Part shown: positions 2,076 to 58,426 of the stretch, piece after piece | How positions within the stretch are numbered: position 1 is the stretch's first letter | How the letters are laid out: each line of letters opens with the position of its first letter | NCBI GenBank assembly: GCA_051313645.2 | Contig: JBNRSN020000015.1 | Coordinates: 125,922,001-125,986,000 of the forward strand | Source of the DNA: Centroscyllium fabricii | Taxonomy: Eukaryota | Direction of reading: 5' to 3' | Length of the DNA stretch: 64,000 nucleotides | The notes under the pieces: model-generated | Seen by the model: only the letters and a program-made list of their open reading frames with translations | Told to the model about the DNA's origin: nothing | Databases searched by the model: none | Position numbers and translations under genes: made by a program

Positions 2076-3290
2076 ATTACAACGGCGACTACACTTCAAA
2101 AATGTACTTTAATGGCTGCAAAGCACTTTGGGACATTCAGAGGCTGTGAGAGGCACTGTAGAGATGCGAGTTCATTCTTTCTTCTTTAAATTTCTCAACA
2201 AAGGGTGGCACCTTTGACAATGCAGCACTCCCCGAGTCCTGCGATTGCAGCCAGTCTTGATGACATGTACTCGTTCTAGCGTAGGGTTTGAAGGCAACAG
2301 CGTCTGCTCAGGAAGGTGACAGAGCGGCCAACCCAACCACTCCCAAAATGGCACTCATTTTAGCAACTGCGCCTCAATATGGAAAGTGGCCCAGAATACA
2401 AATGGTATGCAAGCGAAATGGCTGTTCATAGTTTATGCAATCTTTAGAGGAAATCACCAGGTTCATGCAGCTGATAGTAATCGCACCATTTCCTTCACAC
2501 TCCACTGGTTTAATAGTTTTCTATTGTTATATTATTTCACCCAGCGATCTTCTGCAATCGCAACATAACAAAACCGCTGCAGAATCGTTCTCACGCACAG
2601 TGGACGAGGGCCATCAATCGAGCTTCATATAACACGGGGATAATAGATAATAATAGGTAAGAATCTGTAAAATGGGTCAGGTCTGTACTGATGGGATCTT
2701 AGTGCCGGTTTCGCACGTTTCAATGCTGACAGCTGCAAGGCCTGAACTTCCGACGTGCCATTAACAAGCCAACCCTCAGGGTGTTATTTTTATTTTAAGA
2801 ACAGGTTAACACTTCTCTGAAAGAATGTAGTACGAGTGTCTGCTACAGTTGTAGTCAGCCTCACCAATCCGAATGGGTACATTGGTGAGATTAAAAGATT
2901 TTTTTGTTTTCTTTTTAATTCATTCTCATGGCATCGCTGGCAAGGTCGGCAATTATCGGCCGTCCCTAGCTGCCCTGAGAAGGTGGCGGCGCTGGGCTAT
3001 GTTCCCTCTAATTTTTTGGGGGGTGGGGGGGTGGGGGCGGGCGGCCCCTTTAACGTGCTGTGTGGCTCATTCACGATACTGCGTGTGTGCCGTTTCTTTC
3101 CATTTAAAAGCCGGTGAGCAGGCTGCGCGGGAGCTCCACGCGCTCCGCGGCCGCGCGGCTTAAAGGTGGCGGGCCTTCTTCCGGAGCCTCTGGACTGTAG
3201 CGGTTTGATCGGCCGCTTCAGAGGGCAGTTAGGAGTCAACAAGGTGGAATCACTCAGCAGGCCAGGCAGCATCCCTGGAGAGAGAAACGC

Positions 3291-3327
3291 GGTTAACGTT
3301 TCAGGTCTGGGACCCTTCGTCAGAACT
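3291..3327 (-). ncRNA. Hammerhead motif (family A), sense to SYT9
   Basis: Minus strand: gtt-CTGACGA-a-gggtc cca gacct-GAAA-cgtt-aac. Confidence 0.7.
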
Positions 3328-3404
3328 GGAAACAAGTTAGAGATGTGACAGGTTTTAACCAAGTGCAGAGGTAGGGAGGAACAAAAGCAATGGTCTGTGT
3401 TAGC

Positions 3405-4007
3405 ATAAGAACATAAGAAATAGGAGCAGGAGTCGGCCAATCGGTCCCTCGAGCCTGCTCCACCATTCCACAGGATCATGGCTGATCTGATCCTAACCTC
3501 ATATCTACTTTCACTCTCCATCCCGCCCAAATCCATGTGATCTCCCGGGAGAGGCGAAAAACCAGATAAAAAACCCAGTGGGCAATTTGAGAGAAAAAAT
3601 CTGGGAAATGCCTCTCCGACCCATCTAGGCGATCGAAAACTGGTCCAGGAGATCACATGGCCGATCTGAACCTAGCCTCACATCCACTTACCTGCCCGCT
3701 CACCATAACCCCTAATTCCCTTTACTTCTAGGAAACTGTCTATCTCTGTTTTAAATTTATTCAATGTAGTAGCTTCCACAGCTCTCTGGGGCAGCAAATT
3801 CCACAGCCCCAACACCCTCTGAGTGAAGAAGTTTCTCCTCATCTCAGTTTTGAAATGGCAGCCCCTTATTTTAAGATTATGCCCCCTAGACCTAGTTTCA
3901 CCCACCATTGGGAACATCCTCACCGCATCCACTCAATCAAGCCCCTTCACAATCTTATATGTTTCAATAAGATCGCCTCTCATTCCTCTGAACTCCAATG
4001 AGTAGAG
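3405..4007 (-). mobile_element. CR1 3' fragment with extended structured 3' UTR
   Basis: ORF2 C-terminus 3678-3932, plus an extra module at about 3490-3660. Confidence 0.88.
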
Positions 4008-4056
4008 AAGGCAGGAGAGATTAAATGTTGGAAATGGGGATGGCACAACTTATTCC

Positions 4057-4093
4057 AGTTCTGACAAAGGGTCCCAGCCCTGAAACCTTAACT
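4057..4093 (+). ncRNA. Degenerate hammerhead motif (family A)
   Basis: agtt-CTGACAA-agggtcccagccct-GAAA-cctt-aact. Core G8 is lost. Confidence 0.4.
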
Positions 4094-4796
4094 CTGTTTC
4101 TCTCTCCACGGATGCCGCCTGGCCTGCTGACTATTTCCAGCATTTTCTGTTGTTATTTCAGATTTCCAGCATCTGCGGTATTTTGCTATTGTAGGAGTCA
4201 ACAAGGGTTCTTTTTAAAGGCAAATAGGCAGGTATGATAATTGACAAAAATAAAAACCCCATCCAGAAATAGCCCTTTCTACTTAGCAGACTTGGGGACT
4301 CATAGATAGAGAGAGAGAGAGAGCGAGAGCCCCCCAAACATTAGCGACCATGGGGGTGAACTTTCCGGATTCATGGGATAGCTTGCCTCACTCATCAATG
4401 TCAAGTCCCCTCATTTACATGTCTGAAGGATCTAATGTCCATTTTAGGCAGCCGTCTGGCACACCTGAAAAATGACCTAACCTAGTTTCGGGTAGGACGT
4501 TTTTCCGGTGGGTCCTTGGGGTGCAGGATGTTGGTCTCCGAAATTGGGCCCCATTAAGGCCATTTTACAGGCACAACGAGGTCCAATTTCTACCCGAGTA
4601 TTCTAGTTACCACACGGGCCCTTGAGAAATTACTCCCTGTAGGTCGCTTCCATGTTTGTTGTTGGCAGGATCTTCTAGGAGCTATGCGGCGAATGGGACT
4701 AAAGGTGTTTGTTCGGCCAAGCCACAGCTCCCAGACTCTCCGCACTTTCTACCTCAGACACCTCCTACCCTTGCAAAACCAAAGTGTGACTCGCGA

Positions 4797-10164: not shown

Positions 10165-11106
10165 GGGCCCTGTTTTCCTGTGGCCCGATTGCTGCGGGTG
10201 CGCGCTCACGTGCACCCGCGGCGCACGCGCACGTAATTTTTTATTTTTTTTTACAGCAATTTCCTGTGGAAAATGCCATTTTTTTTGCTGCGTAGGGGTC
10301 TGGTTTTTTTTGGTGCGTGGTGCTTTGTGCGTAGGTTGTGAGCAGGCCACGCCCACTGAGGTCGGCTTTCCCCCCGCACAAAGCACAGAATCGGCCTCAG
10401 GACAAAGAATATCGGGTAGGAAGCACCTTGTTTTTTTTAAGTTTCTAGGAAGCACCTTGTTTTTTTTAAGTTTCTAGGAAGCACCTTGTTTTTTTTAAGT
10501 TTCTAGGAAGCACCTTGTTTTTTTTTGGTGGAAGTGAAAAAAACACGTTTAAAGGTAAGTTTTTTTTTGATTCCTTTGCAGATATTTGTCTGTGGTCTTT
10601 CAGCTTTTAAATGGGTAGGGGTTTTTTTTGTTGGTGAAAGTGAGAAAAAAAACGGGTTTTTAACGTGAATTAAGCAGCTGTGATGGCCATCAGAGCTGCT
10701 GACATCGCGTTAAAAACCCGTTTTTTTTTCACTTTCACCAAAAAAAAAAAAAAACCCTACCCATTTAAAAGCTGAAAGACCACAGACAAATATCTGCAAA
10801 GGAATCAAAAAAAAATGTACCTTTAAACGTGTTTCTCCACTTCTCAAAGCTGCTGCAGCACCTCTAAGACTGCTTTTTAAATGTGCAGCTGAAGAGAGAC
10901 TTGCCCACGTGATACACACGCATTCTGAGCAGCTGCCACAGGAAATCGGCAGCTCAAAGTCTTCCTGGGTAGGAAGCTGAAGCCCCTTGCCCATCAGCAC
11001 AGGAAATTCACGTTTCTGGTAATCACCCGAGCTGCACCCCCACGAGGCATTTCTGACCCCCCTTCGTGGGGGTGCAGCTCTTCTGGAGCACAGGAAAACA
11101 GGGCCC
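10165..11106. mobile_element. PIF/Harbinger-like MITE inserted in a CR1
   Basis: Perfect 18-bp TIR GGGCCCTGTTTTCCTGTG, 3-bp flanks ATT/AAT. CR1 sequence cccacATT|atactcc is continuous across it. Confidence 0.85.
10418..10526. repeat. Tandem repeat of about 29 bp, roughly 3.7 copies, inside a MITE
   Basis: Unit AGGAAGCACCTTGTTTTTTTTAAGTTTCT. Confidence 0.9.
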
Positions 11107-18295: not shown

Positions 18296-19214
18296 TTTAT
18301 CCATTGATGGGATGTGGGCGTCGCTGGCTGGCTAGGCCTGCATTTAGTGCCCATCCTTAATTGCCCTTGAGAAGATGGTGGTGACCCGCCTTCTTGAACC
18401 GCTGCAGTCCATATGGTGTAGGTACTCCCACAATGTTGTTAGGAAGGGAGTTCCAGGATTTTGGCCCAGCGACAGTGAAGGAGCGGCGATACAGGTCCAA
18501 GTCAGGATGGTGTGTGGCTTGGAGGGGAACTTGTAGGTGGTGATGTTCCCATGCATCTGCTGCCCTTGTCCTTCTAAGTGGTAGAGGTCGTGGGTGTGGA
18601 AGGTGCTGTTGAAGGAGCTTTAGCGAGATGCTGCAGTGCATCTTGTAGATGGTACACACTGCAGCCACAGTGCGCCAGTGGTGGAGGGAGTGAATGTTGA
18701 AGGTGGTGGATGGAGTGCCAATCAAGCGGGCTGCCTTATCCTGAATGGTGTCGAGCTTCTTGAGTGTTGTTGGAGCTGCACTCATCCAGGCAAGTGGAGA
18801 GTATTCCATCACACTCCTGACTTGTGCCTTGTAGATGGTGGAAAGGCTTTGGGGAGTCAGGAGGTGAGACACTCGCCGCAGAATTCCCAGCCTCTGGCCT
18901 GCTCTTGTAGCCACAGTATTTATGTGGCTTGTCCAGTTCAGTTTCTGATCAATGGTAACCCCCAGGATGTTGATAGTGGGGGATTCAGCGATGATAATGC
19001 CATTGAATGTCAAGGGGAGATGGTTAGAGTCTCGCTTGTTGGAGATGGTCATTGCCTGGCACTTGTGTGGTGCGAATGTTACTTGCCACTTGTCAGCCCA
19101 AGTCTGAGTGTTGTCCAGGTCTTGCTGCATATGGACACGGACTGCGTCAGCATCTGACGAGTCTCGAATGGTGCTGAACAGTGTGCAATCATCAGCAAAC
19201 ATCCCCACTTCTGA
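18296..19214 (-). mobile_element. Second CR1-clade LINE family, 3' fragment
   Basis: MFADDCT, WADKWQVTFAPHKC, IYKAQVRSVMEYSPLAW. Confidence 0.88.
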
Positions 19215-19909
19215 CCACAACTGAGGTCTCAAAGGTGTTGCCTCAGCAATTAAAATCAAATTGTCTTATGTCTGAGAACATAAGCGTAGCGGTCAATGTC
19301 AGGCAACCTGGGAGCAGAGATCGCAGTGCAGAAGTCATCTCACTGGACTAATAATCCAGTGGAATGGAAGTTCAAATTCCACCATGGCAGTTTGAGGATT
19401 TGAACTCAGTTGGAAATTTAAAACAAAGATCATATCAGTAAAAATGGCGAAGAAGTTGTCGGATAAAACCCAACTGGTTCACTCACTGTCCTTTCAGGGA
19501 AGGAAACCTGCCGTCCTTATCCGGTCTGGGCCTCCAATGTGGTTGACTATTAACTGCCCCCTTGCCCAGCAAACCAACCAACCAACGAACCAACCAACCA
19601 GTTACCCCCATCTTCTCAGGACAAATAGAAATGGACAATAGATGCCGGCCTCGCCAACGACGCCCACATCTCGAGAATTAGCAAAAGGACACCGGAAATG
19701 TGGGCAGCAAGAGGATTGCATCAATAGTCAGCCAGATAGGTGTGGTGAAGGAGCAATGCTTGAAAGTTTCAGACTCACCAGGGCGATGGTGAATAAGATG
19801 TGTCCACGAAGACACACTTGGATAATCAGTTACCTGCAATAAAGCAGCAACAAAAAATGGGGAAAAAAAGTGAATGATTTCATTAACTAGTCTGTGCTTT
19901 CGGGTTTAT

Positions 19910-20365: not shown

Positions 20366-21353
20366 GTATGTACCTCCAGCCATTACCTTCTGTGGGCCTT
20401 TCTGTATTACACATGTTCCATTACTGTTAAGCGTGACTTTTTAATTAAATCTGTAGCACTGGTAGGCGGCTGCATAGCTAACTGGCTCGATAGGGATCGA
20501 GGGATATGGGGACAAGGCAGGGACAGGGTGCTGGGTTTGGATGATCAGCCATGATCTCATTGAATGGCGGAGCAGGCTCGAAGGGCCGAATAGCCTACTC
20601 CTGCTCCTATCTTCTATGTTTCTATAGAAACATAGAAGCATAGAAACTAGGAGCAGGAGTAGGCCATTCGGCCCTTCGAGCCTGCTCCGCTATTCAATGA
20701 GATCATGGCTGATCATCCAAACCCAGTACCCCGCCCCTGCCCTCTCCCTATATCCCTCTCGAGCCTGCATCGACACATATCCCACCCTATCCCTGTAACC
20801 CCACATATTCAATCCCCCTAACACTAAGGGTCAATTTATCATGGCCAATCAACCTAACCCGCACATCTTTGGACTGTGGGAGGAAACCGGAGCACCCGGA
20901 GGAAACCCACGCAGACACGGGGAGAATGTGCAAACTCCACACAGATAGTCACCTGAGGCCGGATTTGAACCCGGGTCTGCAGTGCTGTGAGGCAACAGTG
21001 CTAACCACTGTGCCACCGTGCCACCCTATGTTTCTATGTAACTGGTAAGTTCCAGATTGCAGCTGTGATTAGCCCAGGAGTTGTCTTCGCTGAAATCACA
21101 GCCATCTCATTGCATCTGTAGACATGTTGATCCAGAACTGCTCCTGGCAGGATTGCCAAATGGCTGCTTCTTTGTGACTCCAGTCCAACACCAATGCAGT
21201 GGAGCCGTAAAAAAGGACAATTGGTGAACCTGTTGGGTTTTTTCAACAATGTCGCGCTAAAAATGCAAGTCTTTCTTTTCTTTCTTGTTGTTTGATGTTA
21301 AACCGAGGCCCCGTCTGCTCTCTAAGGTGCACGTGAAAAATCCTATGGCACTA

Positions 21354-24046
21354 CAGGTCCGACATCGTTAATCCGGCACGGGTAGGACCAGGCCGGTGCC
21401 GGACAAGTGAAAACTCCAAACGATTGAAGCTTCGGCGAGCGCATGCGCAGACCATTCAAAATGGCCACCGCGAAGGCTGGCAGCCATTTTGAATGGTCTG
21501 CGCATGCGCTCGCCGAAGCACCAATCGTTCGGAACCATTCAAAATGGCTGCCGCAAAGCATTTTGAATGGTCTGCGCATGCGCTCGCCGAAGCATCAATC
21601 GTTTGGGACCATTCAAAATGGCCGCCACGCAGGCTGCCGGCCATCTTGAATGGTCTGTGATACGTTTCTGCGTCATCGCTATTACGTTTTCCTGTTACCA
21701 ATCCTCGAGGTGTATGTGAGAGCAAATGAGAGACACAGCACAGAGAGCTTATTGACACACGTCTTTACTTGATCGATCTCCAGTGAAGCCCAAGGATACA
21801 TTCCGGTGCAGCGCCTTATATTCTCAGTGACCTAAAGCTGCACTACTGTAACCTTCCACTATACCATACAAGTCCCAGTACAGCTGCTATGCCATTGGCT
21901 CACAGGCTGATACAGCGGCATTGCCATTGGCTCACAGACTGTCCATCATAGCCTTCTCACAGTCTACTCACATACACTACACTCCTCCCCCCTTACATGA
22001 GCACATCACCCCTCTTTGTTTTTCATTAAACATTTTACAACAGTACAGTGTTATTCTACATTACTAGGCAATTCTACTGTGCTCATTCACTAACATGAAC
22101 ATACTACAATTTTACTTGTTACAACATGGTTATCTAGTGACTCCTTACTTTAACATTTAACACACATTAATAAGAGTCAATGACTTTACTGTAACATTCA
22201 GCCCAAGCCCTGATATTCGGCATAAGGATCTTCCTCCGTCGTTGGAAAAGTGTCCATGTACAGTCTTTGAACGGGTTTGTCCGTTACTGGGTTAGTCTTG
22301 GTGTTCGGATGATGGTATTCGTGTCCCCTTGGTTGCTTAACCTCCGCAGCATTTCTTCTTGCTGACTCTTGCGACACCGCTATGTTAAAAACTGTTTCCA
22401 AGGTTAAATCTTTCTTCATCAAGAGAAGTTTCTGTGTGCTTTCTCTCAGCCATCCACAAACAAATCTGTCTCTTAATAGTTCAGTTCGCATCAAATTTAA
22501 AAGAGTAATCGCTTTCCGGTCTTCCGCTACTTCAACCCTTTTTAAATAAGTGTCCCAGTTCTCGATATCATTATCGCACGATGTTACTATAAAAACTTTT
22601 GTCATCTTCAGTTATCTTTTCTTTCAGCTTTCAAAACTTTCCTTTCGTTTTCAAACTTTTCTCTTTTTCAAAACTTTTTCTCTTATTCTTCAAAGCTTTT
22701 CTTCCTTTTTCAAAGCTTTTCTTTCTTTTCCCAAGCTTTTCTTTCTTTTTCAAAGCTTTTTAAAGTTTTCCTTTTTGCCAAACGTTTTAAAGATTTTCCT
22801 TCAAAATGGCTTCTGCCTCGTTTTGAAGCTTTTACAAAATGGCTGCTGCCTTTCTCCTTTACTAAGATGGCTGCCGCCTTGTTTTGAAAATCTTTACAAA
22901 ATGGCGTTTGCCTTTCTCCTTTACTAAGATGGCTCCCGCCTTCCACGATGCTTGCAGCTCCCGTTTACAACGCTACTTCAGGGTAAGGGAAAATACAATG
23001 ACTTCTTCTGCCTCTATTTCCCTTCCCTCCCCCCTTTTGGGTTCCCCTGCAGGTAAAGAAAGAAAAACGACTTCTTCTGCCCCTCTTCCCCTTTCTCCCG
23101 TTTTTGCAGGTTCCTACCGCACTTCCCCGCGGTCTACACGGTGGCCTGGCGTCACTAAGCCCTCAGCAGTGGCCTTCCCCACCCCTAGACACAGTGTACC
23201 CCTTACTAAACCACCGGGGGCTTCCCGACTCACCCCGTGTCAATTACAGCGGCGTCGGTTTCTTTTTCAACTCCTGGAGATCGATGCCTGCTGTTTTCTA
23301 GTCAACACTGACTCAGCTGCTCTTTTCCTGTCTCAGGCTGCCTGTTTGCTGGCTAACCTGTTTTTTAAGTTTGTCTGTGCTCTGTTGGCTGCTTGCCCAG
23401 CCTCTGGTTTTGCCTCCAGCCGTTTTTAAAGCAGTTACTTCCAGGCTGTTCCTGTCTTTTTCTTTCTGGGTGTTTCTTCTTTGAATTTTCCAGTCTTCAG
23501 ACTTTTTCTGAAAGTCCTGTAGGTTCAAATTAATCCGCTATCCCATCACCGTCGCCACTGATACGTTTCTGCGTCGTCGCTATTACGTTTTCCTGTTACC
23601 AATCCTCGAGGTGTATGTGAGAGCAAATGAGAGACACAGCACAGAGAGCTTATTGACACACGTCTTTACTTCATCGATCTCCAGTGAAGCCCAAGGATAC
23701 ATTCCAGTGCACCGCCTTATATTCTCAGTGACCTAAAGCTGCACTACTGTAACCTTCCACTATACCATACAAGTCCCAGTACAGCTGCTATGCCATTGGC
23801 TCACAGGCTGATACAGCGGCATTGCCATTGGCTCACAGACTGTCCATCATAGCCTTCTCACAGTCTACTCACATACACTACAGTCTGCGCATGCGCTCGC
23901 CGAAGCATCAATCATTCGGGGAGGCCCGGGCATGCGCAGCCAAGTGCGGCGGCCATTTTGCGCATGCGCAGACCAGTGGGCCGGATTCATTCCGGACGAC
24001 TGAAGTTAGCGGATTACCAGTGTCCGGATTAACGGTGCTCAACCTG
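21354..24046. mobile_element. Tigger/pogo-like MITE interrupted by the 21658-23882 LTR element
   Basis: TA flanks. Imperfect TIRs CAGGTCCGACATCGTTAATCCGG and (reverse complement) CAGGTTGAGCACCGTTAATCCGG. Internal palindromic tandem units. Confidence 0.8.
21658..23882 (-). mobile_element. Non-autonomous LTR element with decayed Gypsy-type gag, no pol
   Basis: 324-bp LTRs at 21658-21981 and 23559-23882 (about 4 differences), TSD GTCTG. Minus-strand PBS TGGCGACGGTGATGGGAT (tRNA-Ser(GCU)-like), PPT at 21982-21995, gag-like remnant 22198-22605 (ENWDTYLKRVE, LRDRFVCG, DLTLETVFNIA). Confidence 0.92.
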
Positions 24047-24598: not shown

Positions 24599-26820
24599 GA
24601 AAACATTTGGAGATGTAACAGCTTTTTAAGCAAGTGCAGGGGCCGGGAGAGGGGGGAGGGGAGGAAAGAACAAATAGGGAAGGTCTGTGATAGGATGGAA
24701 GGCAGAAGAGAGTCTTCTTTTCACTGCCTGTTAAAAGCCAGTTGAAAATCTACCCGAGCTTCCTGTGGTAAACAGAAGCAAATGAAAACGTGACATTGAG
24801 TTTCCGTAAGTTTTTAAAAAAAGATTTTTTTTTAAATGACAGTGGAAACTGAATGGGATTTTCTGAAATTCGATTCATTCCATGCGTGACAATGATAATG
24901 TATACTCCATGAATAATTTCTGAAAAGCTGTGGGATGCGATTTGTATCTCAGAACCGGGCGGATTCGATAACTTCACTACAGACACAATGAATTATGGTT
25001 AATTGCAAGGACAGAGTATAAATTACATCCCACAGATATTCCTGCGGCATTCGGTTCTGAACCAGGCGTAAAACAAAAATCATATAATTACATAGATTCC
25101 TACAGTACAACAAATCAGCTGTAAAGCGCTTTGGGACGTCCGGTGGTCGTGAAAGGCGCTACAGAAATGCAAATCTTTCTTTCTTTCCTATGCAGCACAG
25201 AAACAGGTCACTCGGCCCAACTAGTCAATGTCGGTGTTTATGCTGCACACGCGCCTCCTTTTTAAAAATTATTCGTTTATGGGATGTGGGTGTCACTGAC
25301 AAGGCCAGCATTTATTGCCCATCCCCTAATTACCCTCGAGAAGGCAGTGGTGAGCCACCTTCTTGAACCGTTGCAGTCCGTGTGGTGAAGGTGCTCCCAC
25401 AGTGCTGTTTGGGAGGGAGTTTTTTTTAATTATTCATTGATGGGATGTGGGCATCGCTGGCTGGCTAGGCCTGCATTTAGTGCCCATCCCTAATTGCCCT
25501 TGAGAAGATGGCGGTGAGCCGCCTTCTTGAACCGCTGCAGTCTTATTGTTTTTCGTAGCGGTTGTTGACAACTGAGTGGCTTGCTGGGCCATTTCAGAGG
25601 GCATTAAGAGTCAATCACATTGCTATGGGTCTGGAGTCACATGTAGGCCAGACCAGGTAAGGATGGCAGATTTCCTTCCCTAAAGGACATTAGTGAACCA
25701 GATGGATTTTTGCAACAATCTACAATGGTATCATGGTCGCCATTACTAAGACTAACATTTAATTCCAGAATTAAATGGAATTGAATATAAATTCCACCAG
25801 CTGCCGTGGTGGGATTTGAACCCATATCTTCAGAGCATTTGACTGAGCCTCCAGCTTACTAGTCTAGTGACATAACCACTACGCCACTGCCTCCCCGGGA
25901 TTTTGACCCAGCGACGATGAAGGAACGGCCGATACATTTCCAAGTCAGGATGGTGTGTAACGTGGAGGTGGAACTTGGAGGTGGTGGTGTTCCCATGAGT
26001 CTGCTGCCCTTGTCCTTCTAGGTGGAAGAGATTGCGTGTTTGACAGGTGCTGCCGAAGAAGCCTTGGCGAGTTGCTGCAGTGCACCTTGCAGATGGTACA
26101 CACTGCAGCCACGGTGCGCCGGTGGTGGAGGGAGTGAATGTTTAAGGTGGTGGATGGGGTGCCAATCAAGCGGGCTGCTTTGTCTTAGATGGTGTTGAGC
26201 TTCTTGAGTGTTGTTGGAGCTGCACTCATCCAGGCAAGTGGAGAGTATTCCATCACACTCCTGACTTGTGCCTTGTAGATGGTGGAAAGGCTTTGGAAAG
26301 GCCTCCCACCCCTTTTCATCTCATCCTAGCATAACCTTCTATTCCTTTCTCCCTCATGTGTTTATCCAGCTTTTTCTTAGATGCATCTCTGCTGTTAACA
26401 TAACAAGTCAATGTTAATTATATTAAGAGGCAATGGAGCTTGGCTCAATGTTGAGTTACGTCAGCTTGGCTCAGTGGGCAGCACTCTTGCCTCCGGGGCA
26501 GAAGTTTCTGGGTTCAGGCCCCACTCCAGACACAGACACATAATCTCGACTGATACTTTCGCGCAGTCTTGAGGGAGTGCTGCATTATCAGAGATGCCGT
26601 CCTTCAGATGAGATGTCCAACCGAGCACCTGTCTGTTCTGCTGGTACAGGTGGGACTATTCAAAGAAGTGGAAGAAATTATTCTGCCACCACATTACAAA
26701 AACATCAAGTATTCCTACAGTATGATAGCAAAATACTGCGGATGCTGGAAATCCGAAACAACAGCAGAAAACGCTGGAGACACTCAGCAGGCCAGGCAGC
26801 ATCGGTGGAGAGAGATACAG

Positions 26821-26857
26821 AGTTAATGTTTCAGGTCGATGACCTTTCTTCAGAACT
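26821..26857 (-). ncRNA. Hammerhead motif (family A), palindrome mutated
   Basis: Minus strand: agtt-CTGAAGA-a-aggtc atc gacct-GAAA-catt-aact. Confidence 0.6.
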
Positions 26858-27454
26858 GGGGAAATGGGGCATGGTACATTGGCGAGACCATGCAGACACT
26901 ACGCCAACGGGTGAACGGACACCGCACAACAATCGCCAGGCAGGAGTGTTCCCTCCCAGTCGGGGAACACTTCAGCAGTCAAGGACATTCAGCCTCCGAT
27001 CTTCGGGTAAGCATCTCCAAGGTGGCCTTCGAGACACACGACAACGCAAAATCGTCGAGCAGAGGCTGATAGCCATGTTCTGCACCGATGAGCACGGCCT
27101 CAACCGTGATATTGGCTTCATGTTGCGCGACATGTGACCCCCACCTGACGTAGAGTCATCCAGACTCGAGTCGTCTTTGGCTTGTTCTCACTACGCTGAT
27201 GCAGCTGCGATTTCCAGTAAGAATTTTTTATTTTTTAAAAATCATTCTGTGGGTTTTCACACAGACACCAGACTGTAACATTTGACCCTTTGTGACTGCA
27301 CCTCATTGATCTCAGCCTGACTGATGTGTTAGAACACCTTTGATTGCTTTGATGTCTCTCTGCTGAGGTGTGATGTTGAACAGTTGGAGAGACCACATTG
27401 TTCTCTCCCTCTATATATATATATATATGCTGTGTTTAAATGAATCTCTTCACT

Positions 27455-27491
27455 TCACCTGAGGAAGGAGCTGCGCTCCGAAAGCTTGTGA
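27455..27491 (+). ncRNA. Minimal type I hammerhead ribozyme motif (family B)
   Basis: tcac-CTGAGGA-a-ggagc tgc gctcc-GAAA-gc-TT-gtga, with palindrome AGCT. Confidence 0.8.
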
Positions 27492-27630
27492 TTTCAAATA
27501 AGACTGTTGGACTATAACCTGGTGTTGTGTGACTTCTTACAATTGAGAAACCAGGAGAGGGGATCGATTTGAAAGCTGGTAGGGGCTGGGGAAAGGGGGA
27601 GGGGCTGAAAGAACAAAGGGAAGGTCAGTG

Positions 27631-29850
27631 TGTGGTGAACCATTTAGTGTAGTTCACACTGTTATTATTGTATATAGTTTGTGCTAATAAAGTTGTTCCT
27701 TTCTGTAAGGACCTGGACCAGCTGACCCCGCCTCCGGGTATGAGTATAAAGGAGGATGCTCCGCCCACCTGACTCTCATTCCAGGCAAGACTCATCGCGG
27801 ACCAGGTCTTGTTCTTAGCGAATAAAAGCCTTTGATTACGATCCACGAAAGACTGGCGTGATTGATTAGCGCATCAATTTTATTCGCTAAGATTTACAAT
27901 GGGTGATGAGCCAGGACAGAGCCAACAGCCAGCTGCACCAGACACCTGGAGATCGATCCTCAGTGGCAGGGTCTTTGCAATCATCAAGAACGCCACTGAC
28001 TATGATGCAGCGTTGGAGCTGCTGAGGGCTCGGTACCTCCAGCCTGTCAACGCTGTCTACGCTCGCCATCTACTCGCCACGCAGAGGCAACAGCCTGGTG
28101 AGTCGAATGAGGAGTACCTGGAGGCTCTTCAAGCTCTCGTTCTGCGCTGCGAATGTGCACCCGTTAATGCCCAGGAGCACATGGACCTCCTCGTCCGCGA
28201 TGCCTACGTGGCAGGAATCCGATCGGCCCCAGCGCGCACCCGCCTGCTCGAGCAGGATGATTTGTCCCTGAACCAGGCGGTGAAGCTTTCCAATGCGGTG
28301 GATGGGACCCTCCGCAGCCTGGATTCGTACACGGGGCACAGCTCCCACACGGTTTCCCCAGGGCCTTGGGACTCACGTTTAACGCCCTCGACGGCAACCG
28401 TGGCGGCCACGGCGCCATCCGGACAGCCAGCACCCCTGAAATGCCACCTCCCGCCCTCGACGGCAACCGTGGCGGCCACGGCGCCATCCGGCCAGCCAGC
28501 GCCCCTGAAATGACATTTTTGTGGCCATAAACGCCACCCACGAAGCTCCTGCCCAGCGAAGTCGGCATCCTGCTCCAGGTGTGGCAAGAAGGGCCACTTT
28601 GCGAAGGTCAGCCGATCGGCCCCGGAATCTACAAAGAAAACGGCAGCAGCCTGCAATCTCTACGCCACAGAGTGGCCTCAGGTACCTGGCGCCCCCCAAT
28701 AGCGTTTTTCTAAGAAACTATTACTTACTTTGCCTCGGGTGCGGCCTGCCAGCGCCATTTCCCGCGTTCTGCCGTTTTCCTCCTCAGTAGAAACATGGGC
28801 GCCGTCGCCATCTTTGGGGGGTGCGGCCTTCTTCATGCCTGGAACGGCAAGAACGGGCGGCAGAGGCCCTGCCCCATCACGTGACGCCGCCGTCTCCCAG
28901 CGTCACATCAGCAGCGGTCCCCCCACATCACGTGCCGAAGACCAAACGGGCGGCAGAGGCCCCGCCCCATCACGTGACGACGCTATCTTGGTGCAGGACG
29001 GCCTGCATACCTGCAGCAAAGGGCCCGACACCATCTTTGTATAGGAGGATTTTTAAAGCACAGGCTGCTGCAGCAACTAGTGACTTTAAATCAACCTCAG
29101 TGATTCTGGCAGCTGCAACAGACTGCTCCAGACCACTTCAGCGTCCCGGCGCTGCTGCTGCGCCGCGAGCCCTTCGGTCTTCCCGACGGCATTCTCAGAG
29201 ACTCACCCACCGGTCCGAAACACCACCGCGGCCCGCCGCATGCGAATCACGGGCGCCGCCACCAACCGTGGTTCCTGCATCGCACAAGGGCCCCAGCGCG
29301 CACATTACATCGAGGCCCTTGCCACCTACAATGCACGACGGAGTTCATCACGTTGCTCAACCTCCGGCGGCTGCTACACCTCCACCAGATCTTCCTGCGT
29401 ATGAACCTCCTCTTCCACCGGTGGAGTCCCTGTTCGCTTCGGGAGCTCCGTCAGCATCTTTTCTGATTGCGACTACTCCCGCTTTTTCGTGCGAGTCGCC
29501 ATTGCTTCACAGGTCTTCTCGGACTGTTCGACCTCCTCAAGGACTGATAACGCAGTGCTGATGTTCGCCCCGCGGGACTTGTTTTTTTAAGGAAGGGGTG
29601 AATGTGGTGAACCATTTAGTGTAGTTCACACTGTGTTATTATTGTATATAGTTTGTGCTAATAAAGTTGTTCCTTTCTGTAAGCACCTGGACCAGCTGAC
29701 CCCGCCTCCGGGTATGAGTATAAAGGAGGATGCTCCGCCCACCTGACTCTCATTCCGGGCAGGACTCATCGCGGACCAGGTCTTGTTCTTAGCAAATAAA
29801 AGCTTTTGATTACGATCCACGAAAGACTGGCGTGATTGATTAGCACATCA
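27631..29850 (+). mobile_element. Non-autonomous LTR element with gag and two CCHC knuckles, no pol
   Basis: LTRs at 27631-27876 and 29603-29850, TSD CAGTG, PPT AAGGAAGGGGTGAA. The gag ORF 27899-28513 (YARHLLATQRQQPGES, VRDAYVAGI) continues in frame past a TGA into HFCGHKRHPRSSC and CSRCGKKGHFAKV. Confidence 0.92.
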
Positions 29851-32472
29851 CAGTGACAGGATAGAAGCCGGGGAGATTATGAGACATTGAGAGACATTAA
29901 GAGAAATTCAAGGAACACAGGATGGCTCTAGAGGTGTGAACGGCATTTCTACAGCACCTTTAACATAGTGAAACATCCCATGGTGCATCACAAACCAAAA
30001 TTTGACACTGACGAACAAAGGTATATTGGGACAGGTGACCAAAAGCTTGTTGCTCACAGAGTTAGCTTTTACGGAGCGTCTTAGAAACATAGAAACATAG
30101 AAGATAGGAGCAGGAGTAGGCCATTCGGCCCGTCGAGCCTGCTCCGCCATTCAATGAGATCATGGCTGATCATCCAAACCCAGCACCCTGTCCCTGCCTT
30201 GTCCCCATATCCCTCGATCCCTATCGAGCCTGCACTGACACACATCCCACCCTATCCCCGTAACCCCACATATTCAATCCCCCTAACACTGAGGGTCAAT
30301 TTATTCTGGCCAATCAACCTAACCCGCACATCTTTGGACTGTGGGAGGAAACCGGAGCACCCGGAGGAAACCCACGCAGACACGGGGAGAATGTGCAAAC
30401 TCCACACAGATAGTCACCCGAGGCCGGATTTGAACCCGGGTCTCTAGCGCTGTAAGGCAACAGTGCTAACCACTATGTCACCGTGCCGCCCTAGGACAAG
30501 AGAGAGCCAGAGAAGTTTCGGGAGGAAATTCCAGAGCTTAGGGTCTTGGCAGCTGAAGGCACGGCCGCCAATGCTGGAGCAATTATAATCGGAGATGGGC
30601 AAGAGGCCCGAATTAGATAAGCACAGATATTTTGCAGGGTTGTAGGGCTGGGGGAGGTTACAGAGATAGGGAGGGGCGAGGCCATGGAGGGGTTTGAAAA
30701 CAAGATGAGAATTTTTAAAATCGAGGCGTCGCTTAGCCAATGTAGGTCAGTGAGATAACGCCACTAAAGCAAAATTGGTTAACTGCCGAGTCACCTCATC
30801 AGTGGGATCTTGTTGTACGTAAAATGGCTACTGTGCCTTCTGCAAAACAGCGACTGCACTAACAGTAATTCATGGTATGTAAAGCGCTTCCTCAGAGAGG
30901 CAATAAGACTATTAAAATGGAAGCCTGTCATTCATTGGTTCCAGTGTAGTTGGAAGTTTAATTAGATTCTTGTGGCATGATGCATATTAAGAACATAAGA
31001 ACTAGGATCAGGAGTGGGCTGTACGGCCCCTCGAGCCTGCTCCGCCATTCAGTAAGATTACGGCTGATCTTTGACCTCAACTCCACCTTCCCGCCCGATC
31101 CCCATATCCCTCGATTCCCCCAGAGTCCAAAAATCTATCGATCTCACCCGTGGGGGCGGCATGGTGGCACAGTGGTTAGCACTGTTGCCTCACAGCACTG
31201 GAGACCCGGGTTCAAATCCAGCCTCAGGTGACTATCTGTGTGGAGTTTGCACATTCTCCCCGTGTCTGCGTGGGTTTCCTCCGGGTGCTCCGGTTTCCTC
31301 CCACAGTCCAAAGATGTGCGGGTTAAGTTGATTGGCCATGATAAATTGACCCTTAGTGTTAGGGGGGATTAAATATGTGGGGATAGGGGGGGATATGTGT
31401 CGGTGCAGGCTCGATAGGGATCGAGGGATATGGGGAGAGGGCAGGGACAGGGTACTGGGTTTGGATGATCAGCCATGATCTCATTGAATGGCGGAGCAGG
31501 CTCGAAGGGCCGAATGGCCTACTCCTGCTCCTATCTTCTATGTTTCTATGTGTCCTAGCTCGCACCAAGTCCCGTTCACCCATCTCCCCTGTGCTCGCTG
31601 ACCTACATTGGCTCATTCCTCCTTTAAGACGCTCCTTAAAACCTGCATCTTTGACCAAGCTTTTGGTCACCTGCCTTAATTTATCCTTAAGTGGCTCGGC
31701 GTCAACTATTTTGTCTTAAAACACTCCTTTGCGGCGCCTTGGGACGTTTTATTACTTTAATTGCGCTATATAAATACAAGTTTTTGTTGTTGTTGGATAT
31801 ACTCAACGACTGAGCATCCACAGTCCTCTGGGGTAGAGAATTCCAAAGATTCACCACCCTCTGAGTGAAGAAATTTCTCCTCATCTCATTCTTAAATAGG
31901 CTACCCCTTTTCCTGAGAATGTGACCCCCTATTCGAGACTCAACAGCCAGGGATAATATTTATTTTGAATGAGTTTTCACAAAAAAAAGGAAAAAATATT
32001 AGTTCCGGTACTTGGAATATCATTTTGTTCCATCTCCATGAACATATTTAAATGGAAATTGTATCAGCACAGAGCAAGTCCCACACTCTTCCGTTTGATA
32101 AAGGTGTGAAAAATTAAATGTGCGTCAAGAGCAGTGAGAAAGCGGCAATGGATCAATTATTTTGTGCTTTGAACACAGGTGCGAGAAATGCTTGTGAACA
32201 GTTGCGGGGGGGCGGGGGGACACCGGTAGAATGTGTTAAGGACGTGTTAAGTGTCATGAATGAGCTGCTGGTGTTGCATTCTGCAGTTACAGAAGCACAT
32301 CAATACTATTTTACTCATAAAAAGTTCAGATCTGCCCTACACGAGGACCAAGAAAAAGAAAACACTTTCATGACCACCGCACGTCCCAAAGCGCTGTACA
32401 GCCAATGAAGCACTTTTTGAAGTGTCGTCACTGTTGTAATGTAGGAAACGCGGCAGCCAATTTGCGCACAGC

Positions 32473-35235: not shown

Positions 35236-35548
35236 GTAAGGAAATTCCTTTTAAAAAAATCATTCTGTGTGTTTTGCAGCATTTGACCCCTTGCGACTGT
35301 GCCTCATTGATCTCAGACTGATGTGTTAAAATATGTTAATATGCCTTTGTGTGCTCTGTCTATCTCTGCTAAGGTGAGATCAGATTTCTCTCTTCCTCCA
35401 ATATGTGCGTTCTTTAAGTCAGCGTCTCTTTCACCTGACGAAGGGGCTCCGAAAGCTTGTGATTTAAAATAAAACTGTTGGACTATAACCTGGTGTTGTG
35501 TGACTTCTTGCATTTGTCCACCCCAGTCCAACACCAGCACCTCCACAG
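35236..35548 (+). mobile_element. Non-coding Penelope pseudo-LTR-type repeat (family B)
   Basis: Matches 27217-27540 and 40197-40556. Contains an HHR motif. Confidence 0.75.
35431..35462 (+). ncRNA. Hammerhead motif (family B), shortened helix II
   Basis: tcac-CTGACGA-aggggctcc-GAAA-gctt-gtga. Confidence 0.55.
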
Positions 35549-35879
35549 CAAAATAGTACCACAGGGTCCTTCACATCCACCTGACAGGACAGGTGGAGTC
35601 TCAGTAACGTCTCATCTAAGATACAGCACCTCCAACAGAGCAGCACATACAGCACTGCACTGGAGTGTCAGCCTCGATTTTGTGCTGAAGTCTCTTGGAG
35701 TGGGGCTTGAACCCATGACCGCCTGACTCAGATATGAGAGTGCTACCCACCGAGCCATGGCCGGGGAGGAATTCCAGAGAATAAACGACAGAGGAACAAG
35801 GTCATGAAGGGATTTAAACACAGGGGCAACAAATTTAAATTTGAGGGCTCGGTCGACAGGGACAGATTCCCAGAACAAT

Positions 35880-39896: not shown

Positions 39897-40560
39897 CAAC
39901 CAACAATGCAAAATCGGCGAGCAGAGGCTGATAGCCAAATTCCGCCCCCATGAGGACGGCCTCAACCGTGAAATTGGCTTCATGTCACGGTTGAGGCCGT
40001 CCTCATGGGTGCGGAATTTGTCTATCAGCCTCTGCTCGATGATTTTGCGTTGTCGTGTGTCTCGTAGGCCGCCTTGGAGAATGCTTACCCGAAAATCGGA
40101 GGCTGAATATCCTTGACTATGATATTGGCTTCATGTCGCGCTACATGTGACCCCGCTTGACATAGAGTCATCCAGACTCGAGTTGTCTTTGGCTTGTAAG
40201 GAAAATCCTTTTTTTTTAAAAATCATTCTGTGGGTTTTCACACAGACACAAGACTGCAACATTTGACCCTTTGTGACTATACCTCATTGATCTCAGACTT
40301 GTGCCTGATTAATATGTTAAAATATGTTAAACCACCTTTGTCTGCTCTGCATGTCTCTCTGCTGAGGTGTGATGTTGGGGACATTAGATTGCTCTCTCCC
40401 TTGTATATATGCTGTCTTCTAATGAACTTCTCTTTCACCCGAGGAAGGAGCTGCGCTCCGAAAGCTTGTGATTTCAAATAAAACTGTTGGACTATAACCT
40501 GGTGTTGTGTGACTTCTTGCGTTTGTCCACCCCAGTCCAACACCGGCACCTCCACATCAT
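39897..40560 (+). mobile_element. Penelope-like remnant with internal inversion
   Basis: Homologous to 27040-27545, with 39985-40118 inverted. Confidence 0.8.
40435..40471 (+). ncRNA. Degenerate hammerhead motif (family B)
   Basis: tcac-CCGAGGA-a-ggagc tgc gctcc-GAAA-gctt-gtga. U4 changed to C. Confidence 0.45.
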
Positions 40561-48847: not shown

Positions 48848-49395
48848 AAAAAAAAGTGTTTTGCATACAATGAATTACTGTTAAAGTGTAGTTGCTGTTT
48901 TGCAGAAGGCGCAGTAGCCATTTTGTCACACAGCAAGATCCCACTGATGAGCTGAAATTGGCAATTAACCAGTTAGTTGAGGATAAATGTTGGACAGAGG
49001 AGTTCCCTCTTCTTTGAATAGTCCCAACTGAACCAGTAGAACAGGTAGTCACAGGTTCTCGGTTGGACATCTCATCTGAAGGGCGGCACCTCTGATAATG
49101 CAACACTTGTGTGAAAGTCCCAGTGACTGTGTCTGGAGTGGGAGGAAAGGGTGCTACCCACTGAGCCAAGCTGACATAACGCACCATTGAGCCAAGCTCC
49201 AATGCCTCTTAATATAATTAACATTACCTTGTTATTTAACGAGCATTTAAGAGCAAGCTGGATAAATACACAGGGGAGAAATGAATAGGAGGTTATGCGA
49301 TAGCAAAATACTGTGGATGCTGGAAATCTGAAATAACAACAGAAAACGCTGGTGAAACTCAGCAGGCCAGGCAGCATCGGTGGAGAGAGAAACAG

Positions 49396-49432
49396 AGTTA
49401 ACGTTTCAGGTCGACGACCTTTCATCAGAACT
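49396..49432 (-). ncRNA. Minimal type I hammerhead ribozyme motif (family A), sense to SYT9
   Basis: Minus strand: agtt-CTGATGA-a-aggtc gtc gacct-GAAA-cg-TT-aact. Confidence 0.8.
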
Positions 49433-49578
49433 GGGGAAAACAGGAGAGGGGAGATAGATTTTAAAGCAAGTAGGGGCTGGGGAAAGGGGGAGGGATCCCC
49501 GTTGTTCTTTCACCCCCCTCCTCCTTTCCCCAGCCCCCACAAGCTTTAAAATCTATCTCCCCTCTCCTGTTTTTCTCC

Positions 49579-49615
49579 AGTTCTGATGAAGGGTCTTCGA
49601 CCTGAAACGTTAACT
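49579..49615 (+). ncRNA. Minimal type I hammerhead ribozyme motif (family A)
   Basis: agtt-CTGATGA-a-gggtc ttc gacct-GAAA-cg-TT-aact: helix I, helix II and palindromic ACGT in place of helix III. Confidence 0.8.
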
Positions 49616-49854
49616 CCATTTCTCTCTCCACCAGTGCCGCCTGGCCTGCTGAGTTTTTCCAGCGTTTTCTGTTGTTATTTAGGAGGTTATGCTGATAAGG
49701 TGAGCTAGAAGAGGGTTGGGAGGAGGCTTGTGTGGAGCATAAACACCAGCACGGACCAGTTGGGCCGAATGGCCTGTTCCTCTGCTGTATATTCGATGTC
49801 ATTCCAAGGATTTCCCCCAATTGGATCGCCTTCGAAAAGCAAACCAAACAGTGC

Positions 49855-50935: not shown

Positions 50936-53900
50936 TTAAAAAAATCTAGGCCGACACGCCCTGTGGCAGCACTGAGGGAGTGCTGCACTGTCGGAGGTGC
51001 CATCTTTAGGATGAGCCATTAAAATGGGGCCCCATCTGCCCCTCAGGTGGACCTAAAAGATGACATGGCACTATTTCGAAGAGGAGCGCGGCTATTGGTG
51101 GTCATGGTCCCCTTAACTCTTTTTCCACCCCCAACCCTCCCTCGCTCATTGTGGTGGGGTTAATATTCAAGGCCAACATAGCTAAAACATGAGAGTCCAA
51201 GTCAGAGGCGGCCATGCTCAAACTGTTAGTCAGATCACGCTACTATATCCAGTTCCAGTCAGCGACACAAAAGAGATATTCAAGTGCTGGAGGCAGTACA
51301 GGGAAAAGTGACAAGCGTGATGGGCGACACGGTGGCGCAGTGGTTAGCACTGCTGCCTCGCAATAAGGAGCTCCTGGGTTCGAATCCTGCTTGGCCCGGG
51401 ACCTCTCTGCATGGAGTTTGCATGTCCTCCCCGTGTTCGTGTGGGTTTCCTCCGTGTACTCCGGTTTCCTCCCACCACCCAAAGACATGCAGGTTAGGTT
51501 AATTGGAGATATTAAAAATTGCCCATGAGTATGTGTGTGAGATATAATTCTTAGAGTTGGGGGATATGGGGAGAGGGTAGGAGGGGGGTGCTGGGCTTGG
51601 ATGATCAGCCATGATCTCATCAAAATGGCGGAGCAGGCTCGAAGGGCCGAATGGCCCACTCCTGCTCCTATCTTCTGTGTTTCTGTGATTTGTAACATCA
51701 GAGCACGAGGAATACTAGAGAAACAAGGTTTTTTTTAAATTGTTACATAGAAGATAGGAGCAGGAGTAGGCCATTCGGCCCCTCAAGCCTGCTCTGCCAT
51801 TCAATGAGATCATGGCTGATCAAGGTTGAAAAGAGACATCTGAGCAGTATGCAAGATAGATAGTGATATGGAACAGGCACATTTGGAAAATGACTTCAAA
51901 CTACGTTGGAAGTGTAGGAAAAAGTACAAACGAGGGAAAAGCAAATTTAAGACTCATATTAGGAAATTCATTGCAAGGAGTTATTAATACAGAAATATTG
52001 GAGCAATAAGAACATAAGAAATAGGAGCAGGAGTCGGCCATTCAGCCCTTCTAGCTTGTTCCGCCATTCAATGAGATCATGGCTGATCTTCTGCCTCAAC
52101 TCCATTCACCGGCCCTATCGCCAGATCCCTTGAAGCCCTTAGTCGTCAGCAGTCTATCAACTTCTGTTTTGAATATACCCAATGACTGAGCCTCCACAGC
52201 CCTCTGGGGTAGAGAATTCTAAAGATTCACCACCCTCTGTGTGAAGAAATTTCTTCTCATCTCAGTCCTGAATGGCCTACCCTTTATCCTGTGGCTGTGG
52301 CCCCTGGTTCTAGACACTCCAGCCAAGGGAAACATTCTCCCAGTATCCACCCTATCAAGCCCTGTAATAATTTTGTATGCTTCAATGAGATTCCCTCTCA
52401 TTCTTCTGAAGTCAAGAGAATACAGGCCTAGTTTACTCAATCTCTTCTCATACGACAGTCCTGCCATCCCAGGAATCAATCTCGTGAATCTTCGTTGCAC
52501 TCGCTCTATGGCAAATATATCCTTCCTTAGGCAAGGAGACCAAAATTGTACACCATTCTCCAGGTGTGGTCTCACCAAGGCCCTATATAATTGGAATAAG
52601 ACTTCTTTACTCCTGTACTCAAATCGTCTTGTAATGAAGGCCAGCATAACAATTACCTTCCTAATGGCTTGCTGCACCTGCACATTCACTTTCAGTGACT
52701 CATGTACAAGGACACCCAGGTCCCTTTGAGCATCTGCATTCCCCAATCTTTCACCATTTAGGAAATACTCTGCCTTTCTGTTTTTTCTGCCAAAGTGGAT
52801 AACTTCACATTTCTCCACATTATATTCCATCTGCCATGTTCTTGCCCACTCACTGAGCCTGTCAAGATCCCCTTGAAGCTTCTTCACATTCTCTTCATAA
52901 CTGACACTGCCACCTAGCTTTGTATCATCAGCAAATTTTGAAAATGTTACATTTAGTCCCCTTATCCAAATCATTGATATAGATTGTGAATAGCTGGGGC
53001 CCAAGCACCAATCCTTGTGGTACCCCACTAGTCACAGCCTGCCATCCTGAAAAAGATCCGTTGATCTCAACTCTTTGTTTTCCGTCTGTTAACCAATTCT
53101 CAATCCATGCTAGTATATTATCCCCAATTCCATGTGCCCTAATTTTGTTCACCAACCTCTTGTGTGGGATCTTATCGAAGGCCTTCTGAAAATCCAAATA
53201 CACCACATCTACCGGTTCCCCTTTGTCTACCCCACTAGTTACATCCTCAAAGAACTCCAATAGGTTTGTGAGACAGGATTTCTCTTTCAGAAATCCATGT
53301 TGACTCTGCCCAATCTTCCTGTTAGTTTCTAAATGTCCAGTTATTGCATCCTTTATAATAGATTCCAGCATTTTCCCAACTACTGATGTGAGGCGAACAG
53401 GTCTGTAGTTCCTGTTTTCTCTCTCCCTCCTTTCTTAAATAGCGGGGTTACATTTGCTGCCTTCCAATCCGCAGGAACCGTTCCAGAATCTAGAGAATTT
53501 TGGAAGATGACAACCAATGCGTCCACTATCCCAGTGGCCACCTCTTTCAAAACCCTAGGATGTAGGTCATCCGCTCCTTGGGATTTATCGACTTTTAGTC
53601 CCATTAATTTTGCCAGTACTTTTATTTTACTAATAATAATTTCTTTAAGTTCCTCATTCTCATCATACCCATGGTTTTCTCATATTTCTGGGAGGTTTTT
53701 TGTATCTTTCTCCGTGAAGACAGAAACAAAGTATTTATTTAATTTCTCTGCCATTTCCTCATTCCCCATTATAAATTCTCCTGTCTGGCTCTAAAGGACC
53801 TACATTTACCTTCGCCAGTCTTTTCCTTTTCACATACCTATAGAAGCTTTTACAATCAGTTTTTATATTTTTCGCTAGTTTGTGCTCAGATTCCATTTTC

Positions 53901-57227: not shown

Positions 57228-58426
57228 ACATTCCAGAAAGCCTTTGACAAGGTCCCTCATAGGAGATTGGCAGGCAAAATTAAGGCTCATGGGATTGGGG
57301 GCAAGGTATTGGCATGGATAGAGAACTGGTTGGCAGATAGAAAAACAGAGAGTTGGGATAAACGGGTCGTTTTCTGATTGGCGGGCAGTGACTAGTGGGG
57401 TACCACAGGGGTCGGTACTGGGACCCCAGCTGTTCACAATATATATTAATGACCTGGATGAGGGAATTGGATGTAACATCTCCAAATTCGCAGATGACAC
57501 TAAGCTTGGAGGGGGAGTATGCTCTGAGGAGGATGTCGGGAAGCTCCAGAGCGACCTGGACAGATTGGGGGATTGGGCGAACACATGGCAAATGCACTAT
57601 AATGTGGATAAATGTGAGGTTATCCACTTTGGTAGCAAAAACAGAAAGGCAGAGTATTATTTGAACGGCAATAGATTGGGAGATGGGGAAGTGCAAAGAG
57701 ATCTGGGTGTTCTTGTGCACCAGTCACTGAAGGTGAGCATGCAGGTGCAGCAGGCGGTTAAAAAGGCAAATGGTATGTTGGCCTTTATATCAAGAGGGTT
57801 TGAGTATAGGAATTGGGATGTCTTGCTGCAGCTGTACAGGGTCTTGGTGAGGCCACACCTTGAGTATTGTGTGCAGTTTTGGTCGCCGCATCTGAGGAAG
57901 GATGTTCTTGCCATGGAGGGAGTACAGCGACGATTCACCAGGCTGATACCTGGGATGGCAGGAATGACTTATGAGGAGAGATTGTGTAGTCTGGGCTTAT
58001 ACTCGCTGGAGTTTAGAAGATTAAGAGGGGATCTCATCGAGACTTATAAAATTCTGTCAGGCTTGGACAGGTTAGATGCAGAAAGGATGTTTCCGATGGC
58101 CGGGGAGTCGAGAACCAGGGGGCATAGTCTAAGGATAAGGGGTAAGCCTTGTAGGACTGACATGAGGAGGAAATTCTTCACACAGAGAGTGGTGAACCTG
58201 TGGAATTCCTTGCCACAGAGGGCGGTGGAGGCCGGTTCATTGAATATATTCAAGAGGGACCTGGATATATTTCTTCAGGCTAAAGGGATTAAGGGATATG
58301 GGGAGAAGGCAGGGACTGGGTACTGAACGTGTAAGATCAGCCATGATCTCATTGAATGGCGGAGCAGGCTCGAAGGGCCGAATGGCCGACTCCTGCTCCT
58401 ATCTTCTATGATTCTATGATTCTATG
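57228..58426 (+). mobile_element. CR1 3' fragment with open 312-aa RT C-terminus
   Basis: ORF 57388-58326, (ATTCTATG)n tail. Confidence 0.93.

Follow-up and report, generated by a model that had tools for sequence, protein, structure and literature searches.

The legend of Fig. 2 in PMC8557442 describes insertions of Penelope-like elements (PLEs) that contain an inverted 5′-truncated copy and a tail of 30–40 bp. For the PLEs Pen2a_Av and Pen2_Av, the part of PMC3846280 considered here reports an inverted pseudo-LTR (pLTR), a 31-bp tail, a target-site duplication (TSD) of 9–10 bp and palindromes at the junction; it also states that the pLTR covers the first ORF codons and proposes self-priming on an antisense template for the junction palindromes. 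Minimal hammerheads on opposite strands, 100–700 bp apart, are described for metazoan PLEs in PMC4209133, in which the G-C pair at 10.1-11.1 is given as highly conserved in minimal hammerheads and in which helix I of the D. virilis Penelope element is said to coincide with an intron end. In an Anolis PLE both strands are cut and extended, and two RT start sites bound the tail, according to the sections of PMC11167929 consulted. The layout itself is already in print for PLEs.

We analysed a window of 64 kb (the whole stretch of DNA studied), in which a fold-back unit of 382 bp in all is formed by two arms joined head to head between direct repeats of 12–13 bp (Table 1). With a probability of about 0.87, this fold-back is a dead-on-arrival, 5′-truncated insertion of an endonuclease-bearing PLE, in which two short pLTR copies were joined 5′ to 5′. 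The putative membership in the PLEs rests on structure. An inverted 5′-truncated end is placed head to head, a one-sided tail of 32 nt is accompanied by two 3′ ends of the family, a TSD is present, and the pLTR contains a minimal type I hammerhead whose pair 10.1-11.1 is off consensus. Inverted ends, one-sided tail, TSD and minimal type I hammerhead match the published PLE footprint, in agreement with the Penelope-like origin suggested by the original prediction. The two diverged inverted copies of a unit of about 160 bp named in that prediction were also recovered, and they differ by 14 substitutions and one indel over 167 columns (about 9%). The earlier description missed their asymmetry, since the tail occurs on the left arm only and the additional upstream sequence of about 20 nt on the right arm only; the arms are non-nested, each having sequence absent from the other. 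The upstream sequence on the right aligned to family copies at 27545, 7077 and 24562, and base 49495 within the junction palindrome fits the family sequence of neither arm.

Table 1. Coordinates of the fold-back, its parts and related features, numbered from the first base of the 64-kb window
Feature	Position	Strand	Description
Host repeat interrupted by the insertion	49130..49800	+	Older, LINE-like 3′ end
Left TSD copy	49286..49298		13 bp, TAGGAGGTTATGC; single in the paralogous host repeat
Tail	49299..49330	-	32-nt 3′ extension, left arm only; same terminal base in the copy at 26724
Left arm	49331..49494	-	5′-truncated pLTR-like family end, 3′ end outward
Putative 42-codon open frame	49300..49425	-	Opens at an ATG inside the core, closes where the tail ends
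Minimal type I hammerhead motif	49396..49432	-	Cleavage predicted at 49400/49399
Pyrimidine tract ending in CAG, splice-acceptor-like	49431..49462	-	Overlaps the 5′ strand of helix I
Head-to-head junction	49492..49499		8-bp palindrome GGGATCCC
Upstream family sequence	49496..49515	+	About 20 nt, right arm only; forms the hairpin loop
Right arm	49516..49680	+	Second 5′-truncated end, without tail
Minimal type I hammerhead motif	49579..49615	+	Predicted cut after 49611
Right TSD copy	49680..49692		13 bp, TAGGAGGTTATGC
Second fold-back of the same family	3230..4206		15-bp TSD, tail on right arm only, different junction
Paralogue of host repeat, empty-site surrogate	26295..26500	-	Target site once, continuous with both flanks

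Both hammerhead motifs were parsed into helix I of 4 bp, CUGAUGA, one extra A, helix II of 5 bp with a 3-nt loop, GAAAC-GUU and helix I. A putative hammerhead is thus found on either strand as predicted, minus in the left arm and plus in the right, complete in both cases and with the helix II loops as they had been written, the word intact being used here at the level of the motif. The helix II stems of the two arms differ only by A-U versus G-U, and each loop is one change from the majority loop of the family (position 49415). The pair 10.1-11.1 is A-U or G-U here and departs from the published minimal-hammerhead consensus of G-C. None of the 10 hammerhead pairs counted for covariation, one of which is a placeholder for two adjacent helix III bases, changed on both sides across eight window copies, and 500 of 500 shuffles did as well. 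Pairing in helix II is kept, as had been claimed, but not by compensation (A-U versus G-U; 0/10 double changes). The motif was not more conserved than the rest of the arm (2/37 versus 13/130 differences; Fisher p = 0.53). The hammerhead was absent among 72 Rfam matches at E ≤ 5, as would be expected for a motif that lacks helix III; these matches, mostly microRNA models below their gathering scores, reflect the hairpin and were rejected as annotation.

The pyrimidine tract has CAG at its end in seven of the seven window copies examined. At the 5′ edge of the hammerhead (49429-49432), family copies end with unrelated flanks in 121, 26, 227 and 235 contigs of the four sequencing runs described below; these ends could mark places where RT halted at the ribozyme, or else the end of a processed RNA. 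By analogy with the published PLE geometry, the 42-codon frame may be what is left of the beginning of the element's ORF.

Contigs of four of the 21 listed runs (X1, X5, X6 and X13) were aligned to 49000-49545, which comprises the left flank, the left arm and the junction. Summed depth was used as an indicator of abundance, not as copy number. In X1, with 66,392 contigs aligned, it was 8.1 on the unique flank and 10^6–10^7 on the part from hammerhead to tail, with a maximum of 1.2 × 10^7 on the arm. The family to which the arms belong is thus very abundant, and the hammerhead motifs are part of its ordinary sequence; six further pieces of it lie within the window, two of which make up the second fold-back. 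Loose ends with unrelated flanks occurred at 49302 in all four runs (658, 53, 652 and 691 contigs) and, among the ends listed, at 49329-49331 in two of the four; the family has two preferred 3′ ends, with and without the tail. Coverage of the segment 49437-49493 was high in X1 and X5 and low in X6 and X13, and since two of the four runs almost lack this upstream sequence, the subfamily is lineage-restricted. Both TSD-flanked fold-backs of the family in the window have the tail on one arm only, and the second one carries a later LINE-like insert in its middle. The TSDs of both start with TAGGAG, a partial microhomology in two cases which may be chance. No paper on the family was found in the published literature searched, the single review retrieved speaking of hammerhead solely as the shape of the motif; subscription papers, Repbase, Dfam and preprint supplements, which lay outside this scope, may list it.

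The original prediction went further and proposed a self-masking, retrozyme-like unit. In such a unit the whole fold-back, made as RNA from either strand, would be cut by its own hammerhead and reinserted by a PLE protein. We regard this as very unlikely. In X1 the junction bin had a depth of 16,796 against 560,155 on the left (3%) and 168,637 on the right (10%), a value which is a loose upper bound only, as the bin includes 13 nt of ordinary family sequence. In X5, ordinary family sequence continues beyond 49494 in 30 contigs, and the second fold-back has a different junction. Because of the depth dip, the family run-on in X5 and this different junction, the present junction is likely a one-off among the joints and pieces listed (32 pieces, with 154,448 more). 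The bin depth is still far above single copy, and a joint of 49493 to 49453, either a tandem or a change of strand, reached a depth of 171.5 in X1, about 21 times that of the flank, which could be a multi-copy variant junction; both observations speak for the retrozyme-like unit. A unique junction had been named as one of the results that would count against that unit, and the evidence leans to a one-off by the dip and the second junction, short of single-copy proof.

A transcript of either strand would have a single hammerhead, with its own antisense arm made first. The whole unit folded with an MFE of −301 kcal/mol (z −32.9; 0 of 100 shuffles equally stable) into a very stable stem of 165 bp. 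In the folding model, forcing the hammerhead fold cost 56–58 kcal/mol in the full RNA and 46–50 kcal/mol in a nascent RNA ending just past the motif, versus 2–5 kcal/mol in a single arm. As the antisense arm comes first on both strands, the hammerhead would have no co-transcriptional window. The hairpin would be expected to mask the hammerhead, and the predicted competition between the long hairpin and ribozyme folding agrees with the model, in which the ribozyme fold is disfavoured by 46–58 kcal/mol; nothing points to any use of such masking. In the data given in PMC4209133, minimal PLE hammerheads showed no cleavage in monomeric form and weak cleavage when two of them lay on the same strand as a dimer; the Anolis hammerhead is described in PMC11167929 as needing the element's protein and as dispensable for insertion. 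With one hammerhead per transcript the fold-back would offer neither a same-strand dimer nor release of a unit-length RNA, and none of the 10 hammerhead pairs covaried. In favour of the retrozyme-like unit, a transcript from either strand would carry the sense family end at its 3′ side, pLTRs can mobilise intervening sequence in trans (PMC3846280), and retrozymes have been argued to derive from PLE ends (bioRxiv 10.64898/2026.07.22.740005). A functional self-masking, retrozyme-like unit is nevertheless not upheld, because each transcript has one hammerhead, the arms are inverted and not tandem, and the antisense arm is made first.

A further explanation is that one arm was inserted first and the inverted arm was gained afterwards, through DNA repair, recombination or another insertion. 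The 13-mer of the TSD occurs exactly twice within the 64-kb window, and its minimum is 12 bp, since the first T may be element sequence. The interrupted host repeat, which we take to be CR1, has a paralogue that matches the left flank, then the target site with one mismatch, then right-flank-like sequence. Because this paralogue has the site once, the 12-bp flanking direct repeat is a true TSD, as had been predicted. A minority allele at 49452 is common to both arms. Insertion of the whole unit of about 380 bp in one event, also part of the prediction, is supported by the TSD, the paralogous empty site and the shared allele. Among single contigs, record 1 of X1 covers the left flank, the TSD and the start of the tail with zero differences. 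Record 9 of X13, from another organism, has 10 differences in 102 nt of flank (90% match) and stops exactly at 49298 with 26 further letters unaligned; its relation to the locus may be non-orthologous, and an empty site in it is only hinted at.

A later second arm would fit the differences between the arms, which affect 9% of columns and are more frequent on the right. Eight of the 14 substitutions fall in four adjacent pairs (p = 0.015, simulation), at 49468-49469, 49393-49394, 49377-49378 and 49353-49354 of the left arm and the matching sites of the right one. Departures from the family majority numbered 11 on the right arm and three on the left (p = 0.06 by base, 0.23 by event), with reads aligned on the left arm, and this skew is mildly odd for arms of equal age. 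The adjacent pairs and the skew are possibly due to doublet mutations or CpG decay. At 49354 the left and right arms carry the two common states (about 51:49 in X1), which would fit two different RNA templates for the arms but is explained by a single transition. Against a later second arm, the TSD encloses both arms exactly, each arm has private sequence, the 49452 allele is in both, and the second fold-back repeats the same layout with its own TSD, which leaves this explanation highly improbable. It is just as improbable that the host, whatever the origin of the hairpin, has retained it to supply dsRNA, for small RNAs against the family or as an editing substrate, since its stem of 165 bp is very stable but is opened by arm differences of which none is compensatory, the locus sits in another repeat and the subfamily is lineage-restricted. 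The share of the locus words present was 0.14–0.21 in five presumed RNA runs and 0.04 in one recorded RNA run, and is not evidence on expression.

For the preferred reading, a truncated PLE insertion, the parent element was searched for. A gene with RT and GIY-YIG linked to the family end was not found in the protein searches and contig scans, which counts against this reading. Protein searches with the 42-aa frame detected no RT or endonuclease domain; two of them gave nothing and the third gave five matches, of which two were long tandem-repeat proteins (judged chance) and three were short unnamed singletons resembling translated repeat. Viral and metagenome contigs were scanned four times for DNA motifs, each time with 0 loci. 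A GIY-YIG remnant in the window (26860-27137), which in Pfam stays below the cut-off (E = 0.036), is part of a second family that has another hammerhead.

This second, PLE-like family is seen at 26724-27632, where a minus-strand arm of the present family is split by a truncated copy with the broken GIY-YIG-like frame and a different hammerhead at 27459; further copies lie at 39903-40560 and 35400-35550. An internal inversion was observed at 39903-40120 within the endonuclease-like part of the second family, and inversions are thus not tied to hammerhead-bearing ends. RT remnants (Pfam RVT_1) with LINE-like 3′ ends at 57322-58326, 52219-53031 and 18357-19265 were unlinked to the fold-back. Long inverted repeats at 20499-20758, 10531-10843, 21415-21606, 30084-31554 and 51602-51822 consisted either of ends resembling those of LINEs or SINEs or of unknown sequence. 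The genome tolerates many near-palindromes.

To account for the structure of the truncated PLE insertion, we propose that the PLE protein would nick both target strands 12–13 nt apart, and that each 3′-OH would prime reverse transcription inward, one from the tail-end start site and the other from the no-tail site. The two cDNA tracts, reaching 66 and about 86 nt upstream of the hammerhead core, would end prematurely and then be joined. The hammerheads would be passengers, and the long hairpin formed by any read-through RNA would bury both. As the route of inversion, dual priming is favoured by slightly better than even odds; self-priming or template switching is a weaker though reasonable candidate, and other routes are improbable. 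Simple snap-back is disfavoured since neither arm contains the other. LINE-type twin priming inverts non-overlapping parts and was rejected, as both arms here repeat the same end. In the Anolis PLE the first 172 nt of the ORF were required in vitro (in the experiments of PMC11167929 considered). As the fold-back is without the sequence beyond the RT start sites that the Anolis element needs, further movement is unlikely, and by this analogy the fold-back probably cannot move again.

A single locus of this kind matters little, being one of very many dead PLE footprints. It is, in turn, a clean record of the PLE integration step, that is, of the origin of inverted ends and a one-sided tail, which is named as open in the part of PMC8557442 considered. 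Even with dead copies, the very large family would allow a counting test of whether both target strands prime at two start sites, and its size also bears on the reason that so many copies end at the hammerhead's 5′ edge. There is only a slim chance that some fold-backs remobilise as hairpin-shaped, strand-agnostic units, in which transcripts of either strand would end in a PLE priming site and the hammerhead would be off until the PLE protein binds. What speaks for this are the residual junction depth and the 49493-49453 joint. If hairpins did amplify as units, they would make up a non-autonomous retroelement of a new type whose ribozyme is conditionally masked; the evidence leans against it.

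Two element classes were considered for the fold-back and rejected. A MITE or other non-autonomous DNA transposon does not agree with the asymmetric termini, which have a 32-nt tail on one side, or with family copies that are also single arms. A non-LTR retrozyme does not agree with inverted arms that have one motif per strand and no head-to-tail tandem.

Compared with known systems, the locus most resembles the inverted pLTR insertions of endonuclease-bearing (EN+) PLEs, as far as these are described in the parts of PMC8557442 and PMC3846280 used here. Shared features are the head-to-head ends, the one-sided tail of 30–40 nt, a TSD of about 10 bp, the junction palindrome and an end which covers the first ORF codons; unlike those insertions, the present one has no RT or endonuclease left, and both of its copies are truncated inside the pLTR. 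With the dual hammerheads of metazoan PLEs, in the descriptions taken from PMC4209133, it shares the minimal type I motif, the short helix I, the extra base before helix II and the palindromic 15.2-16.2, and here too the motifs lie on opposite strands within the spacing of 100–700 bp, whereas the pair 10.1-11.1 is A-U or G-U and not G-C, and helix II has 5 bp. The Anolis Poseidon element PAc belongs to a different family, but in the account of PMC11167929 it likewise has two ends bounding a tail, 70–100 nt downstream of the hammerhead near the ORF start. The ORF of PAc starts at stem II, whereas the candidate ATG of the present locus lies inside the core; inverted copies are left unexplained in the parts of that paper considered, and dual priming is what we infer for the fold-back. 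As presented in the portions of PMC7229834 and bioRxiv 10.64898/2026.07.22.740005 consulted, non-LTR retrozymes are also non-coding and a few hundred bp long, with a type I hammerhead, a long TSD and a relation to PLEs. They are, however, head-to-tail tandems with same-strand hammerheads that release monomers or circles, whereas the unit described here is inverted and has one hammerhead per strand.
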